From the IMG/VR virus record IMGVR_UViG_3300037510_000012, positions 21,267 through 85,266 of that record: a stretch of DNA of 64,000 nt; one strand, written 5' to 3'. Position numbers and translations under genes: made by a program. Positions 4,741-61,119 of this stretch are shown here, piece after piece (the stretch's first letter is position 1; the number at the start of each line of letters is the position of its first letter). This stretch comes from a virus (taxonomy: Duplodnaviria > Heunggongvirae > Uroviricota > Caudoviricetes). The notes below the pieces were generated by a model. It did no database searches, was not told the DNA's origin, and saw nothing but the letters and a program-made list of their open reading frames with translations.

Positions 4741-4764
4741 GCGGCCCTTCGGGGCCGCAAGCTT
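4741..4764 (+). repeat. hairpin-CAAGCTT intergenic element (representative copy)
   Basis: GCGGCCC-TTCG-GGGCCGC followed by AAGCTT, then TAAGGAGG and ATG 4782. Confidence 0.8.
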
Positions 4765-21239: not shown

Positions 21240-21395
21240 TAGCCCTAACAATTTCGGGTCGGAGTTTCTTGGTTACCTTACTATGCATGAGAAGTTGTCG
21301 GTTCGAATCCGGCCGGGTCCATTCATGGGCCTGTAGTTTAATTGGCAAAACTTACACCGAGGAACGTTTCATATCCGTCTTAATTGTTAGGGCTA
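21240..21395 (+). ncRNA. candidate Y RNA-like tRNA-mimic: a 14-bp terminal helix enclosing a tRNA-like T-arm module
   Basis: TAGCCCTAACAATT (21240-53) is the perfect reverse complement of AATTGTTAGGGCTA (21382-95). Inside are GGGTCGGAG, a T-arm GTCGG-TTCGAAT-CCGGC and tRNA-5'-half-like GGGCCTGTAGTTTAATTGGCAAAACT. It lies 650 nt upstream of the Ro60 gene. Confidence 0.4.
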
Positions 21396-23664: not shown

Positions 23665-23716
23665 AACACTGCCCCCTCTTCGGAGGGGGCAAGCTTGTTA
23701 AAGGAGAACAGTTTGA

Positions 23717-30500: not shown

Positions 30501-30779
30501 GGGGTAGCTTGGTTTCGACTTTGCTGGACGGGATATAAACGCAACCCTTCTTGGTCAAAGAAGTAAAACGGGCCAACCAAATAAATGCAAACTCTATGAA
30601 TGCATCTGCTTTCGCTCTAGCAGCGTAAAAGCCGGGTTTGTCGGGAACCTAGGAACAGAATCCCGACTAGTACAAAATGTGTAGATAATGTGTAAGACCC
30701 TTCAGTGTGATTGACAATGGTTGTAGAACGGTTATATGCTAGATAGTAAAGGACGCGGGTTCGACTCCCGCCTACTCCA
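30501..30779 (+). ncRNA. ssrA: tmRNA (ssrA) with tag reading frame ANSMNASAFALAA*
   Basis: 5' GGGGTAGCTTGGTTTCGAC...GGGATATAAACGCAACCC matches E. coli ssrA GGGGCTGATTCTGGATTCGACGGGATTTGCGAAACCC. 3' GGACGCGGGTTCGACTCCCGCCTACTCCA matches GGACGCGGGTTCAACTCCCGCCAGCTCCA. Acceptor has the G3-U70 Ala identity pair; tag frame runs GCA...GCT CTA GCA GCG TAA. Confidence 0.75.
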
Positions 30780-31561
30780 CACAGAAAGATATGGTAATGA
30801 GAGTAACAAATCTCTACATCTATGGTACTGTCGAGTACCTGCGTAGGCTTGAGGAAGACTACGTGTTCATGGGTAGACAAGTGAGACTTGAAGATGATAG
30901 GCTCATCGTGTTCGCGCTTCCCAGGAAGAAGCGAAAGAAGTCTCCCAGTAAGCAGCGCCGTAGGCGTTGACAGACAGGGTTGGAACCTGTTAAGGTATAA
31001 GTAGAAGGTCAGGCAGTCGGACAAGGCTTAGGCGAGTGAGAGTAGTTCAAGCGGTGGTAACTTAAATGCCCACTTAATGATGCTCAACAAATCGGTGGGA
31101 TGCGAGTGGACTAGTCCTGACCTTTTAAGCTTCAATCTGTGGATAACGAAAGGGGTCCGGCGTTCTGTGAACTGGCAGTCGGGTAGCCTGGCATGATACA
31201 ATAAACCTCTAGCGGGGTTAGTCACCCAAGAGTAAAGTTCATTGAGGGTGAGCAGATTGAAAACTAGGTTGCGAGAGGGACAACGGGTGTGCTAAGGTTA
31301 GGTACCGAATCAAGGCACCAAGGTAGATAAGGGGAGAACAGCAAAGGGTCTCCGTGTATCGCAACCAAGCTTTGCAGCAAGCAGGCCAAACGCTATAGAC
31401 AGGGATACAAGGTTCTGAAAAGATAACGCCCATTTGGCAGGGTAGAAAGTTATCACCTGATGCTATCCACGCTGCAACTATGGAGATGACCGGAAACTTC
31501 TCCATAAGCTTCCTTCGTACAAAGCTGTAGGAATAAAAACAAACACGAAGGGTATTAAAAT

Positions 31562-32451: not shown

Positions 32452-32475
32452 GCGGCCCTTCGGGGCCGCAAGCTT
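32452..32475 (+). repeat. hairpin-CAAGCTT element (identical stem-loop to the 4741 copy)
   Basis: GCGGCCCTTCGGGGCCGCAAGCTT. Confidence 0.8.
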
Positions 32476-35999: not shown

Positions 36000-36038
36000 T
36001 TTTTCGGCGGGGTTCGCCCCGCCAAGCTTGGAGGAGAA

Positions 36039-37489: not shown

Positions 37490-37529
37490 AAAACAGGTGG
37501 GGTTCGCCCCACCAAGCTTAGGAGGTAAA

Positions 37530-39481: not shown

Positions 39482-39698
39482 GAAGATGTACTATGTGCTT
39501 ATCAAGCCTGGTGGTAAGCCTCTAAGATATGGTAGAAAGGGTGGTGGCTCATACACCCTTGAGAATAACGCTCGTGGTCAGTATGAACACTTGAAGTCTC
39601 AGGGTTGCAAGGTTGAGCTTTACACTACCGAAGTTGAGTGGAACATGCTAGAGTCCAATGTAAACGAACCAATTGAAGGGCAGGAGCCTCTATGGTAA
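39456..39698 (+). CDS. hypothetical protein
   Basis: ORF track. Confidence 0.45.
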   Translation: MMIMAGLPKKMYYVLIKPGGKPLRYGRKGGGSYTLENNARGQYEHLKSQGCKVELYTTEVEWNMLESNVNEPIEGQEPLW

Positions 39699-40168
39699 CG
39701 TATGTCAAGGGTGATGCAACTAAGCCTCAGGGTGATGGCAGGAAGATTATCGCCCATGTTTGTAATGACGAAGGTGGTTGGGGCGCGGGATTTGTCCTTG
39801 CTGTGGACAAGTTGTCTTCGCAGCCACGAATCAGTTATCGAATGGCTTATGACCACTGGACTAAGGAAGAGGGGTTGACTTTCATCCCACTTGGATGGAC
39901 TCAGCTTGATTATGTTGGCAATAACATTTACGTTGCCAATATGGTTGCTCAGCATCGTACAATCCGTAGTGTTGAGAAGCCAATTTGTTACAAGAGCCTT
40001 GAGGTATGCCTGGAAAAGGTTGCTAAGAGTGCAATTGCTCTTGATGCTACAGTACACATGCCTCGCATCGGATGTGGACTTGCAGGTGGCGACTGGAATG
40101 TGGTAGAGTCAATCATCAACCGAACCCTAACGCTGAGGGATGTTCATGTCACAGTCTACGACCTTTGA
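39692..40168 (+). CDS. macro-domain protein (ADP-ribose / Appr-1''-p processing)
   Basis: VKGDATKP...IIAHVCNDEGGWGAGF and C-terminal RIGCGLAGG resemble MacroD/YmdB GDIT...NAAN..GGGGV and ISTGVYG. Confidence 0.7.
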   Translation: MVTYVKGDATKPQGDGRKIIAHVCNDEGGWGAGFVLAVDKLSSQPRISYRMAYDHWTKEEGLTFIPLGWTQLDYVGNNIYVANMVAQHRTIRSVEKPICYKSLEVCLEKVAKSAIALDATVHMPRIGCGLAGGDWNVVESIINRTLTLRDVHVTVYDL

Positions 40169-40379: not shown

Positions 40380-40444
40380 TCAGGGCGGGGTTCATAAAGA
40401 GCCCCGCAAGCTTCATTGGTTCGAAAACAAAGGAGATATAACCA

Positions 40445-42370
40445 ATGCGACCTAATGCAAATGTGGCTGAACGCAAGGGTGACCTTGGTGGCCAGAAGAT
40501 TGCAATGACGTTCGACCAGAATAGTCTTGCACATCTTATGTCGGTTATGACTGACCTGTATTCTGACCCTGAGCTTGCGGTAATTCGTGAGTACAGCACA
40601 AATGCGTGGGATTCCCACAAGGCTGCTGGGGTTACTCGTCCTATTGAGGTTACGCTCCCTAATGGTCTTTCTCCTTACTTCAAGGTCAAGGATTACGGCC
40701 TTGGTATGGATATTGACGACATTGAGAATATCTATTCTCAGTATGGTGCGTCAACGAAGCGTGACACTGATGACCAGGTTGGTATGCTTGGTCTTGGTTG
40801 TAAGTCTGCGCTGTCTTATACTTCCCAATTCACGCTTATTGCTGTGAAGGATGGAATGAAGTATAATGTAGCTATTAGCCGTACAGAGAATGGCTCCGGA
40901 GTCATGGAGGTTGTTCTTGCAACCGAGACTGACGAAGAGAATGGCGTTGAAATTGTCATTCCGGCTAAGCGTGGTAACAACTTTGCACACAAGGCAAATG
41001 AATTCTACCAGTTCTGGGAGAAGGGCAGTGTGCTTATTGATGGTGAAGAGCCTAAGTACATTTCTGGCCGGGAGGTCAAGAATGGAATTATGATGGTCTC
41101 TGACCTTTCCAAGGATTATCTTATCATGGGTAACGTCGGTTATCCTCTTGATGAGCGTCACCAGATTGGTGAGCGCAATTACTATTCCCGCTATGGCGTA
41201 GTGGCGCGGGTTGACATTGGAGACGTGAACTTTACGCCTTCTCGTGAATCCCTGCATTACACTAAGCGTACTGAGGACACAATCAATCGAATTCGGACTG
41301 AATTCAAGGCGGGTCTCGATGGTATTGTTGAGCGAGACGTTACGGCATGTGCAACTCAGGAAGAGGCTCTTACGACTTACCTTGAGTGGTACAATCTTCT
41401 TGGTGGTGGTTACAGCCGTTACAAGTTCCCTGAGGTTGAGTACCGGGGTAAGAAGGTTCCGATGAACATTCAGCACCCGTTCCTCTCCTACAAGGTGAAC
41501 CACACGCGGTATGCAGTTGATTCACACAACTGGATTGATATTAAGACTGCTCGTGATACCCCCATCATTTATGGGTTCGCTGGTGAAAAGATTAGCGGCC
41601 ATCAGCGTGAGAAGATGCGTACTTGGCGCACGCTCAATGGATTCACTTCTAGCAACATCCTGATTTGTGATGAACTGCCGGATGTTCTTGAAGAGGATTG
41701 GATTCCTGAGAGCAAGGTATATTCTTGGGAGGATGTTAAGACTGCTAAGGTTCCGGGACAGAAGTCTGGTCGTCCTGCTGCTGTTTACGATGTTTACCTT
41801 CCTGGTTCTACTCGTATCAAGCAGGTAAAGGCTGACGAATTCCCTGACGACGTTGAGATTGCCCTTGTGGCTCCGCGAGATGTTCCTAATTTCCGGACCG
41901 TTAAGGCTTTCCTTGAGGAGAAGACGGATGTTATGATTGTTCGACTTCAGCAGTACCGATGGGAAAAGTTCCGCAGGACATATCCTGACGCTAAGGACCT
42001 TACGTCATTCTTCAAGGAGATGTACGAGAGCGCAGTAAAGGGCCTTACCGATGAGGACAAGTTCAACCTTGGCCTTGACTATCGTGTCCGCAATCTGCTA
42101 CAGTCTCTTAATGAGACGGAGATTGAAGACCCGGAACTTGTAAAGGCTATCATTGCTGCAAAGCAGGTCAAGCCTAGTGATACTCTCAAGCGATATGAGG
42201 AAATGAAGGAAACCTATGGTACCTTTAACTTCGCTCGATATGGTCAGGCTGAAATTGACCGGGTTAACCCGCTTGAGCAGTACGTTCTTCTGAAGTACCA
42301 TTACTACGACATGGATGTTACGCACGCTACGGTTTATATCAATGCAGCGTACCACGCTTTCGTAAAGTGA
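40445..42370 (+). CDS. Hsp90/MORC-like GHKL ATPase
   Basis: Bergerat motifs: REYSTNAWDS (Hsp90 ELISNASDA), YGLGMD (DxGxGM), GMLGLG (GxxGxG). Confidence 0.7.
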   Translation: MRPNANVAERKGDLGGQKIAMTFDQNSLAHLMSVMTDLYSDPELAVIREYSTNAWDSHKAAGVTRPIEVTLPNGLSPYFKVKDYGLGMDIDDIENIYSQYGASTKRDTDDQVGMLGLGCKSALSYTSQFTLIAVKDGMKYNVAISRTENGSGVMEVVLATETDEENGVEIVIPAKRGNNFAHKANEFYQFWEKGSVLIDGEEPKYISGREVKNGIMMVSDLSKDYLIMGNVGYPLDERHQIGERNYYSRYGVVARVDIGDVNFTPSRESLHYTKRTEDTINRIRTEFKAGLDGIVERDVTACATQEEALTTYLEWYNLLGGGYSRYKFPEVEYRGKKVPMNIQHPFLSYKVNHTRYAVDSHNWIDIKTARDTPIIYGFAGEKISGHQREKMRTWRTLNGFTSSNILICDELPDVLEEDWIPESKVYSWEDVKTAKVPGQKSGRPAAVYDVYLPGSTRIKQVKADEFPDDVEIALVAPRDVPNFRTVKAFLEEKTDVMIVRLQQYRWEKFRRTYPDAKDLTSFFKEMYESAVKGLTDEDKFNLGLDYRVRNLLQSLNETEIEDPELVKAIIAAKQVKPSDTLKRYEEMKETYGTFNFARYGQAEIDRVNPLEQYVLLKYHYYDMDVTHATVYINAAYHAFVK

Positions 42371-42430
42371 TTGGTCGGCCCCGAAAGGGGCCAAGCTCCG
42401 GAAATGTCTAATATTAGGAGATAAAACAAA

Positions 42431-43438
42431 ATGAAGTATAATCTCGTTCAGGTTGAAGATGGCGGAGAGGCAAACCTTACCGTTGTCCACGATGGAGAGA
42501 TGTATGTGGCCACTGACACTCACCCTAATTTCGAGCGAATTGTCGCGGGTGTTGTCGCCGGAGATGAAAGTGTAGTTGAACTGTTTGATGTTCAGAAGAC
42601 TGCACAGAAGCGATTCGACAGGCTTTCCGAGCGTGTCACTGTTTCAAATGGTAAGGTCTACCTTGATGGTGAAGAGGTTGACAATGCACTTACCCAGCAG
42701 GTTATCAACTTTGTGAATAACGGAGTTGAGGACTTTAAGCCTCTCGTTGCTTTCTTCGAGAAGGTTGAGACTAACCCGAATTCTCACAGCCGAGTTCAGC
42801 TTTACGCTTGGCTTCGTGACCGTAACATTACCCTTACTGAGGATGGAAACTTCATCGCTTACAAGGGTGTGAAGGTCGAGAATGGCGAGTATTTCAGCAT
42901 TTCCACTGGAAAGGCAATTTCCAATGGTGTTGAGTACAATGGTGCAATTCCTAACCCGCTCGGTGCGATTGTTGAGATGCCTCGCTCTGAGGTTCAGCAC
43001 GACCCTAGCGTTGGGTGCCACACCGGTCTCCATGCTGGTACGTGGAATTACGCCAGTGGTTTTGCGCGGGGTGCGGTTCTGACCGTAGAGATTAATCCGC
43101 GTGACGTTGTTTCCGTTCCTACGGACTGTGATGCGCAGAAGTTGCGTGTCTGTCGCTACGTGGTTAAGGACGTGACTGAGACTGAGCTTGACACTCCGGT
43201 CTACAGCACTTACCCTGACCTTGATGGTTACGAGGATGAGGAGTACGACGACTACGGCTACGATTATGACGAGCCGGATGTTGACACAGACGAGCCTGTT
43301 GAGGTAGAGTCTGAGGACAAGGAAGGAACCGAGTCCACCGGTGTTGTAACTGCGGATGTTTCTAGCGCAATTACGTGGCGTCCTGTGGAGTCCACTTGGG
43401 CTCCGGAAGACCCCGATGCACCTTGGAACCGAGTCTAA
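42431..43438 (+). CDS. hypothetical protein with a long acidic C-terminal tail
   Basis: ORF track; follows the GHKL ATPase gene. Confidence 0.55.
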   Translation: MKYNLVQVEDGGEANLTVVHDGEMYVATDTHPNFERIVAGVVAGDESVVELFDVQKTAQKRFDRLSERVTVSNGKVYLDGEEVDNALTQQVINFVNNGVEDFKPLVAFFEKVETNPNSHSRVQLYAWLRDRNITLTEDGNFIAYKGVKVENGEYFSISTGKAISNGVEYNGAIPNPLGAIVEMPRSEVQHDPSVGCHTGLHAGTWNYASGFARGAVLTVEINPRDVVSVPTDCDAQKLRVCRYVVKDVTETELDTPVYSTYPDLDGYEDEEYDDYGYDYDEPDVDTDEPVEVESEDKEGTESTGVVTADVSSAITWRPVESTWAPEDPDAPWNRV

Positions 43439-43479
43439 TCGGTTCGCCCCTTCGGGGGCAAGCTTACTAAGGAGGAACA

Positions 43480-43638: not shown

Positions 43639-43685
43639 TACACTAGCCTCTCCGGAGGCAAGCTTCCTAACGAAAGGAGATATTA

Positions 43686-44462
43686 ATGTCCAAGATTATG
43701 ATTCTGGGCGACGTTCACGGTGAGACAAAGTGGCTGGTGAACATGATTAACAAGGCCAGTCGAATGGGCGTCAAGAAGATTCTCCAGGTTGGAGATTTCG
43801 GAATCTGGACTCATGAGGCTGAGGGACACCGGTTCCTTGACCGCGCAAATGAGGAGCTTCGTAAGCATGGCATTAAGCTCTATTTCGTTGGCGGCAATCA
43901 TGAGAACTGGGACCACCTGAATTGGCACGAGAAGAATGGTGCTAAGGACTGGAATGGTCACACATTTATTCGGTCTCACATTCTTTACACTGGTCGGGTG
44001 AATCGCTGGACCTGGGGTGAGAAGGGTGAGGAGAAGGTCTTTCAGGCTGTTGGTGGTGCCTTTTCAATTGACCGGCGTCGGCGGGTTGTTGGAAAGACTC
44101 TCTGGCTTGATGAGGAGATTCCTGACCGGGTTGTTTATGGTCTGGAGAAGGCTGGTCGGAAGTGTGATTACCTTTTCACGCATGATGGTCCTAGCTGTCT
44201 TCCATTCGCAAATCTGAAGCCTGATATCGACTCTGATATGCACCGGCAGAAGATGGACCGAATTGGGCGGGCTACTCGGCCTAATCTTTGGTTCCACGGT
44301 CACTATCACAAGTGGATGGAGTACAGCTTTATGCACCAGGAGGGTTATTCCTTCGTGTATGGGCTTGACCGGGACTATCAGTTCTACTCTTACGCCATTC
44401 TTGATACTGCATCTGGTGACGTTGAGACTGCAACTGGTAAGATTATCGAGCACGGAAACTGA
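43686..44462 (+). CDS. calcineurin-like metallophosphoesterase (lambda-PPase/Pnkp-phosphatase type)
   Basis: GDVHG; GDFG; GGNHE motifs. Confidence 0.75.
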   Translation: MSKIMILGDVHGETKWLVNMINKASRMGVKKILQVGDFGIWTHEAEGHRFLDRANEELRKHGIKLYFVGGNHENWDHLNWHEKNGAKDWNGHTFIRSHILYTGRVNRWTWGEKGEEKVFQAVGGAFSIDRRRRVVGKTLWLDEEIPDRVVYGLEKAGRKCDYLFTHDGPSCLPFANLKPDIDSDMHRQKMDRIGRATRPNLWFHGHYHKWMEYSFMHQEGYSFVYGLDRDYQFYSYAILDTASGDVETATGKIIEHGN

Positions 44463-50627: not shown

Positions 50628-50648
50628 GGGGGTTCGCCCCCAAGCTTC
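50628..50648 (+). repeat. hairpin-CAAGCTT element, GGTTCG-loop subtype
   Basis: GGGGGTTCGCCCCC-AAGCTT; related copies at 36006-36029, 37495-37519 and 43446-43465. Confidence 0.8.
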
Positions 50649-53388: not shown

Positions 53389-53417
53389 GGGGGTTTCGTA
53401 AAGAGACCCCCAAGCTT
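53389..53417 (+). repeat. hairpin-CAAGCTT element, TTTCGTAAAGA-loop subtype
   Basis: GGGGG-TTTCGTAAAGAGA-CCCCC-AAGCTT; similar copies at 52366-52392, 56028-56059, 51474-51499 and 58674-58697. Confidence 0.8.
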
Positions 53418-61093: not shown

Positions 61094-61119
61094 GCGGCCC
61101 CTTCGGGGGCCGCAAGCTT
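61094..61119 (+). repeat. hairpin-CAAGCTT element
   Basis: GCGGCCCCTTCGGGGGCCGCAAGCTTTTT. Confidence 0.8.

Follow-up and report, generated by a model that had tools for sequence, protein, structure and literature searches.

The window analyzed here, a 64,000-nucleotide (nt) stretch of the IMG/VR record IMGVR_UViG_3300037510_000012 (Caudoviricetes; record positions 21,267 to 85,266), carries two adjoining genes that raise the question of whether a phage might encode a new GHKL (Bergerat-fold) ATPase system. A preliminary description had reported open reading frames (ORFs) of 641 and 335 amino acids (aa), the first with Hsp90-like ATPase motifs and the second with a long acidic tail, and had proposed that the pair was novel. 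Both ORFs were present as described (Table 1), and comparison of their products with known proteins makes it virtually certain that they are a Streptomyces phage's rIIA and rIIB genes. The pair is of a kind already known and annotated in close relatives, and it is no new phage GHKL system.

The 641-aa protein matched phrog_612 ('RIIA') with an E-value of 2.2e-98, aa 1-593 aligning with positions 1-651 of the 725-position profile, and the 335-aa protein matched phrog_609 ('RIIB') at E 5.5e-64. We took the T4 prototypes, rIIA (NP_049616) and rIIB (NP_049889), from NC_000866 and found that their best PHROGs were also 612 and 609, respectively. In BLASTP comparisons, aa 8-284 of the window rIIA shared 28% identity with T4 rIIA (E 6e-23), and aa 10-250 of the window rIIB shared 30% identity with aa 82-309 of T4 rIIB (E 1e-31). 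The first protein is homologous to the T4 rIIA family over most of its length, and the second to the conserved core of the rIIB family. The arrangement of the genes agrees with this assignment, as rIIA lies directly 5' of rIIB on the plus strand, separated from it by a 60-nt spacer with its own hairpin and Shine-Dalgarno sequence. The phrog_609 profile (1055 positions) is matched by rIIA proteins at its N-terminus and by rIIB proteins at its C-terminus, which the natural RIIA-RIIB fusion of phage RB43 explains. In this fusion protein (UniProt Q56C47, 1049 aa) the rIIB core fold recurs (Foldseek E 3.6e-17, 32% identity), showing that rIIA and rIIB can function joined in one polypeptide; in the window they are separate cistrons. 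The fusion provides good evidence of joint action by the two proteins, and it bears out the partnership that had been suggested for them.

By tblastn, matches to the N-terminal 300 aa of rIIA turned up in 2,921 of 50,697 phage records and matches to the rIIB core in 2,779, each total including 93 Streptomyces phages. The earlier statements that GHKL ATPases are unusual in phages and that the pair is novel fail because about 2,900 phage records encode homologues; the PHROG 612/609 matches, the BLASTP comparison with T4 and the annotation in relatives all point to rIIA/rIIB. The rII pair occurs in about 6% of sequenced phages, and the window adds one more orthologue. Streptomyces phages have been reported to carry RIIA/RIIB genes (PMC13587820).

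The window is approximately 82-85% identical at the nucleotide level to Streptomyces phages Phredrick, Gilson, Patelgo, Francob and Comrade, whose genomes measure 128-130 kb and which are classified in the genus Gilsonvirus (Stanwilliamsviridae, Loccivirinae; actinophage cluster BE type). The records of several of these relatives name the pair 'rIIA-like protein' and 'rIIB-like protein' (rIIA-like in Patelgo, Comrade and Francob). The Gilsonvirus orthologues have the same lengths, neighbors, hairpin elements and acidic tail with a ...DPxAPWN tip, and the rIIB proteins of Phredrick and Comrade share 85-88% identity with that of the window. The nearest rIIA was a metagenomic protein (P0121, 99% identical) on a 57-kb contig, and a 241-aa rIIB fragment (P0011) was 100% identical to the window rIIB; the nearest cultured phages were only about 84% identical in nucleotide sequence across the rII region. 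The window phage is none of the deposited isolates and is probably an uncultured or undeposited Gilsonvirus-like phage.

What kind of ATPase might rIIA be? The three Bergerat motifs recognized in the preliminary description (REYSTNAWDS at aa 48, YGLGMD at aa 84 and GMLGLG at aa 113) were confirmed; with flanking residues included, motif II reads DYGLGMD from aa 83 and motif III GMLGLGCK from aa 113. Motif I provides the general base and a Mg ligand, motif II the adenine contact and motif III the glycine loop. Across 42 aligned rIIA homologues (38-88% identity), R48, E49, T52, N53 and D56 of motif I, D83, G85 and G87 of motif II, and G113, G116, G118 and K120 of motif III were invariant, and each was identical in T4 rIIA. 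Judging from these residues the ATP site is apparently intact, with the catalytic Glu, the Mg-binding Asn and the adenine-binding Asp retained. The Pfam model HATPase_c_3 scored 26.6 bits on rIIA against a gathering score of 25 bits (E 6.8e-6), and a PDB search with the profile of the 42 homologues recovered TopoVI-B (E 8e-4) with a match spanning motifs I-III only. Because the HATPase_c_3 score was above threshold and the profile matched TopoVI-B, the GHKL assignment is no chance motif match, and the proposed Hsp90/MORC-like GHKL fold is upheld.

The second conserved domain of rIIA occupies the position of a transducer domain. Its residues P265, R267, E268 and L270 were invariant in the 42 homologues and in T4 (FTPSRESL here, IAPSREAL in T4), and R267 is a candidate γ-phosphate sensor by analogy with the Lys/Arg of the GyrB, MutL and Hsp90 middle domains. 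The N-terminal 37 residues, which were of low confidence in the structure model, would fit the N-terminal strap expected of a GHKL protein, and the region from approximately aa 300 to 641 was modeled as well folded and is conserved in the homologues from actinophages. Thus, rIIA has the GHKL domain with intact Bergerat motifs and variable C-terminus described by Iyer et al. (2021), as well as the GHL/MORC-type combination of motifs I-III with an adjoining transducer domain. Membership in the individual families was rejected for Hsp90 (NCBIfam HSP90, 26.8 bits against a cut-off of 455, aa 37-189 only), TopoVI-B (23 bits against cut-offs of 274-381), MutL (11 bits against cut-offs of 180-391) and MORC (MORC2, E 0.39 in a PDB sequence search). 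In the comparison with these four families, which the preliminary description had raised, matches were confined to the ATP-binding region and fell far below the family cut-offs. We also rejected the reading of the pair as a defense-system protein, as PADLOC returned only TmtA for rIIA (E 0.002-0.003, about 14 bits) and nothing for rIIB.

The AlphaFold2 model of rIIB (predicted local distance difference test, pLDDT, 77) consists of N-terminal β-hairpins, a helical segment, a β-rich C-terminal domain and a disordered tail. All 32 significant Foldseek matches in BFVD, a set of predicted viral structures, were rIIB-family proteins from very diverse phages, and no solved structural relative was found for the core. 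Thirty-five invariant columns of the actinophage rIIB alignment were identical in T4, including K145, N175, R185, C196, G199-L200-H201, Y207, P223-R224-D225-V-V-S228, P230, D232, K237, R239, C241 and Y243; this shared set points to a putative conserved functional patch. A cluster of weak matches of rIIB to the ADP-ribosyltransferase fold was also observed and is recorded as a lead only.

The long D/E/Y-rich tail attributed to rIIB was verified: its last 89 residues contain 30 D/E and seven Y with a net charge of -26, aa 263-320 were predicted to be disordered (pLDDT <50), and the protein terminates in the tip peptide ...WAPEDPDAPWNRV. We surveyed the tail in 119 sequences, the window rIIB and the 118 full-length homologues closest to it. 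In every one, the segment following the core was acidic (median 30% D/E, median net charge -16, never positive), with tails that were 32-125 aa long and poorly alignable. A ...DP(D/E)APWN tip was present in 54 of 118, the window rIIB among them, and a ...RDxxGRF(I/V/L)PK tip in 51 of 118, the remainder having acidic-aromatic ends. Within the window, rIIB was the only protein carrying the ...APWN tip. A conserved terminal peptide on an unconstrained acidic linker looks like a docking motif, and the tail might be likened to the acidic tails with a hydrophobic tip of the SSB type. Some rIIB tails contain Cys-rich inserts of CxxC repeats that resemble zinc-binding modules (e.g. Wakanda P0037 and BillNye P0041).

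What, then, might the pair do in Streptomyces? In T-even phages, rIIA and rIIB can be dispensed with except on hosts carrying the RexAB abortive-infection system (PMC8594841; HIDEN-SEQ preprint), and it is on account of this dependence that we take the pair as a counter-defense module. A bacterial gasdermin system also senses RIIB itself as a trigger (PMC10312443). By analogy, we consider it reasonably probable that the window pair is an early counter-defense module against abortive-infection systems. The two soluble or peripheral proteins would jointly prevent a RexAB-type system, encoded by the host or a prophage, from collapsing the infected cell before phage development is complete. Binding of ATP would close the N-terminal domains of rIIA into a dimer, as in the GHKL class, and the nucleotide-driven cycle of rIIA, together with rIIB, would engage or neutralize the target, with host-specific contacts supplied by the rIIA C-terminus and by the rIIB tail with its terminal peptide.

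Several points weigh against this proposal. The C-terminal half of rIIA (after about aa 300) gave no BLASTP similarity to T4 rIIA, a region that has been termed 'highly variable' (PMC7824862), and the window rIIB lacks the N-terminal helix-turn-helix (HTH)-like segment of T4 (~80 aa), the T4 alignment beginning at residue 82. Given the missing HTH and the dissimilar rIIA C-terminus, the function may have diverged from that in T4. The ATPase activity of rIIA is a prediction, the T4 rII system is itself 'long-known yet poorly understood' (PMC8594841), and the growth phenotype on Rex-type hosts is known only for T-even phages and from no actinophage pair. No RexAB-like target in Streptomyces was identified in this analysis.

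An unlikely alternative to counter-defense is that the pair acts on DNA or transcription, rIIA as an ATP-driven DNA clamp resembling MORC or the topoisomerases and rIIB as a regulator of the phage's transcription. The closest structural relatives in which both rIIA domains aligned are mostly DNA-acting GHKL proteins (topo II/IV, MutL, MORC, TopoVI-B and SMCHD1), T4 rIIB has been treated as a specific transcription factor by Iyer et al. 2021 (PMC7824862), and the N-terminus of T4 rIIB gave several weak HTH matches, e.g. HTH_7 at 5.6e-5, just below threshold. However, the window rIIB gave no HTH match and carries an acidic tail, and we regard the N-terminal HTH as a trait of the T4 prototype and not of the whole rIIB family. 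The exchange of HTH for tail argues against rIIB being primarily a transcription factor. Slightly more doubtful is the suggestion that the rIIB core is a divergent ADP-ribosyltransferase-like domain that uses or binds NAD+, with rIIA as its ATP-dependent regulator; the weak fold matches noted above are of this kind, but when all 42 rIIB homologues were scanned against Pfam with E-values as high as 10 allowed, no recurrent domain of this or another type emerged, only noise (Pedibin, tify and CBM_6). It is very improbable that rIIA and rIIB are true lysis-timing regulators acting with the holin/endolysin system: the PHROG and RefSeq names ('RIIA/RIIB lysis inhibitor') and the historical r (rapid lysis) phenotype favor this, but the label goes back to plaque morphology in T4, the note in the T4 record ascribes rapid lysis to specific-prophage effects, the T4 lysis-inhibition signal passes through rI, rIII and holin T and bypasses rII, transmembrane segments are absent from both proteins (top 19-residue Kyte-Doolittle mean, 1.09), and no lysis gene adjoins the pair.

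We further analyzed the hairpin-AAGCTT element that the preliminary description had placed before each gene. This held for rIIA, but the copy in the rIIA-rIIB gap reads AAGCTC; two further elements lie 3' of rIIB. The hexamer AAGCTT occurs 46 times in the window compared to 20.4 ± 4.6 expected. Twenty-three copies consist of a perfect 4-8-bp GC-rich stem, mostly closed by a TTCG- or GAAA-type tetraloop, with the 3' arm abutting AAGCT(T/C); usually, a Shine-Dalgarno sequence follows after 6-26 nt and then a start codon. All 23 are in the plus orientation, and the opposite orientation gave only seven weak matches. The Patelgo element before rIIA has another stem sequence but the same structure and AAGCTT; therefore, the hairpin is selected as a structure. 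The element is intergenic punctuation spread across the window, and the possibility of an rII-specific regulatory element was rejected. It may serve in RNA processing, RNA stabilization or termination; no Rfam family was found for it, and scans of the rII region for sigma-70 and terminator consensus sequences were uninformative.

The rIIA translation start showed a second predicted structure, an 8-bp stem of CATTGGTT (40414-40421) with AACCAATG (40440-40447), the latter including the start codon. In the RNA, CAUUGGUU directly follows AAGCUU and pairs with AACCAAUG, leaving the Shine-Dalgarno sequence in an 18-nt loop (minimum free energy -24 kcal/mol, z -4.96). The stem sequence is identical in Patelgo, hence without covariation. 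This predicted stem could provide translational control of rIIA.

Coding between 38000 and 46000 is on the plus strand, and the GC skew is positive throughout. In addition to the macro-like gene, whose relatives are labeled variously hydrolase or ADP-ribosyltransferase, small ORFs lie upstream of rIIA; a 52-aa ORF and the metallophosphoesterase gene lie 3' of rIIB. The same neighborhood in Patelgo also contains a Sir2-like deacetylase, an RNA ligase and a polynucleotide kinase, the Sir2-like gene lying just 5' of the macro-like gene, whereas the window has small ORFs upstream of rIIA instead. Judging from the ORF list and from how this stretch is annotated in relatives, the window has no Sir2-like counterpart, although no search was aimed at one. 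In character the rII neighborhood is accessory and conflict-type; it is not a block of structural, replication or lysis genes. The window also contains 31 tRNA genes and one transfer-messenger RNA (tmRNA) gene, all on the plus strand within 17856-50144, a layout that fits the cluster BE phages of Hughes et al. 2018 (PMC5764925).

Table 1. Coordinates of the rII pair, its domains and other features of the window
Feature	Position	Strand	Details
rIIA homologue	40445-42370	+	641 aa; phrog_612 match, BLASTP against T4, annotation of orthologues in Patelgo, Comrade and Francob
rIIA GHKL (Bergerat-fold) ATP-binding domain	40556-40969	+	about aa 38-175
rIIA second conserved domain	40970-41344	+	about aa 176-300; transducer-domain position, with FTPSRESL
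rIIA C-terminal region	41345-42367	+	about aa 301-641; lineage-specific; alpha/beta, then helical
rIIB homologue	42431-43438	+	335 aa; phrog_609 match, BLASTP against T4, Foldseek BFVD matches
rIIB conserved core	42431-43180	+	aa 1-250
rIIB acidic D/E/Y tail	43181-43435	+	lineage-specific, disordered; ends EDPDAPWNRV
rIIA translation-initiation region	40414-40447	+	Shine-Dalgarno AAGGAG at 40430-40435
Hairpin element before rIIA	40385-40413	+	GCGGGG-11 nt loop-CCCCGC, AAGCTT directly 3'
Hairpin element in rIIA-rIIB gap	42377-42398	+	GGCCCC-GAAA-GGGGCC, then AAGCTC; identical in Patelgo
Hairpin element after rIIB	43446-43465	+	GCCCC-TTCG-GGGGC, then AAGCTT; before next small ORF
Hairpin element, example	4741-4764	+	
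Hairpin element, example	23671-23696	+	
Hairpin element, example	32452-32475	+	
Hairpin element, example	36006-36029	+	
Hairpin element, example	37496-37519	+	
Hairpin element, example	43646-43665	+	
Hairpin element, example	50628-50647	+	
Hairpin element, example	53389-53417	+	
Hairpin element, example	61094-61119	+	
Macro-like or 'phosphatase' protein, 5' of rIIA	39692-40168		158 aa; phrog_335, 1.2e-25; Pfam Macro E 0.004, below threshold
Calcineurin-like metallophosphoesterase, 3' of rIIB	43686-44462		
tmRNA	30501-30780	+	tag ANSMNASAFALAA

Seventy years after Benzer, the residual value of the locus lies in the long-standing question of the molecular mechanism of rII. Against Hsp90/TRAP1, MORC2/3, type II topoisomerases, MutL and TopoVI-B, rIIA has 9-17% sequence identity; it lacks a Toprim, CW, MutL C-terminal or Hsp90 C-terminal domain, and its C-terminal half is specific to rIIA. 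T4, a myovirus in contrast to this siphovirus of a Gram-positive actinomycete, has the same rIIA-rIIB order on one strand, spanning the start of its map, and a longer rIIA (725 aa compared to 641 aa). The rII module would also be at work in Gram-positive hosts, which have no lambda RexAB. Only two features of rIIB could repay further study: its lineage-specific tail, which ends in the terminal motif, and its core, which has no structural relative. T4 shares the Bergerat-motif residues, the PSRE motif of the second domain and the GLH and PRDVVSxPxD residues of rIIB, and the actinophage versions highlight as universal parts the GHKL and transducer module of rIIA and the rIIB core with these two motifs. 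The adaptors, by comparison, are interchangeable: T4 rIIB has the HTH and stops three residues past the aligned core, whereas the window rIIB adds an acidic tail of ~85-90 aa with its terminal peptide.

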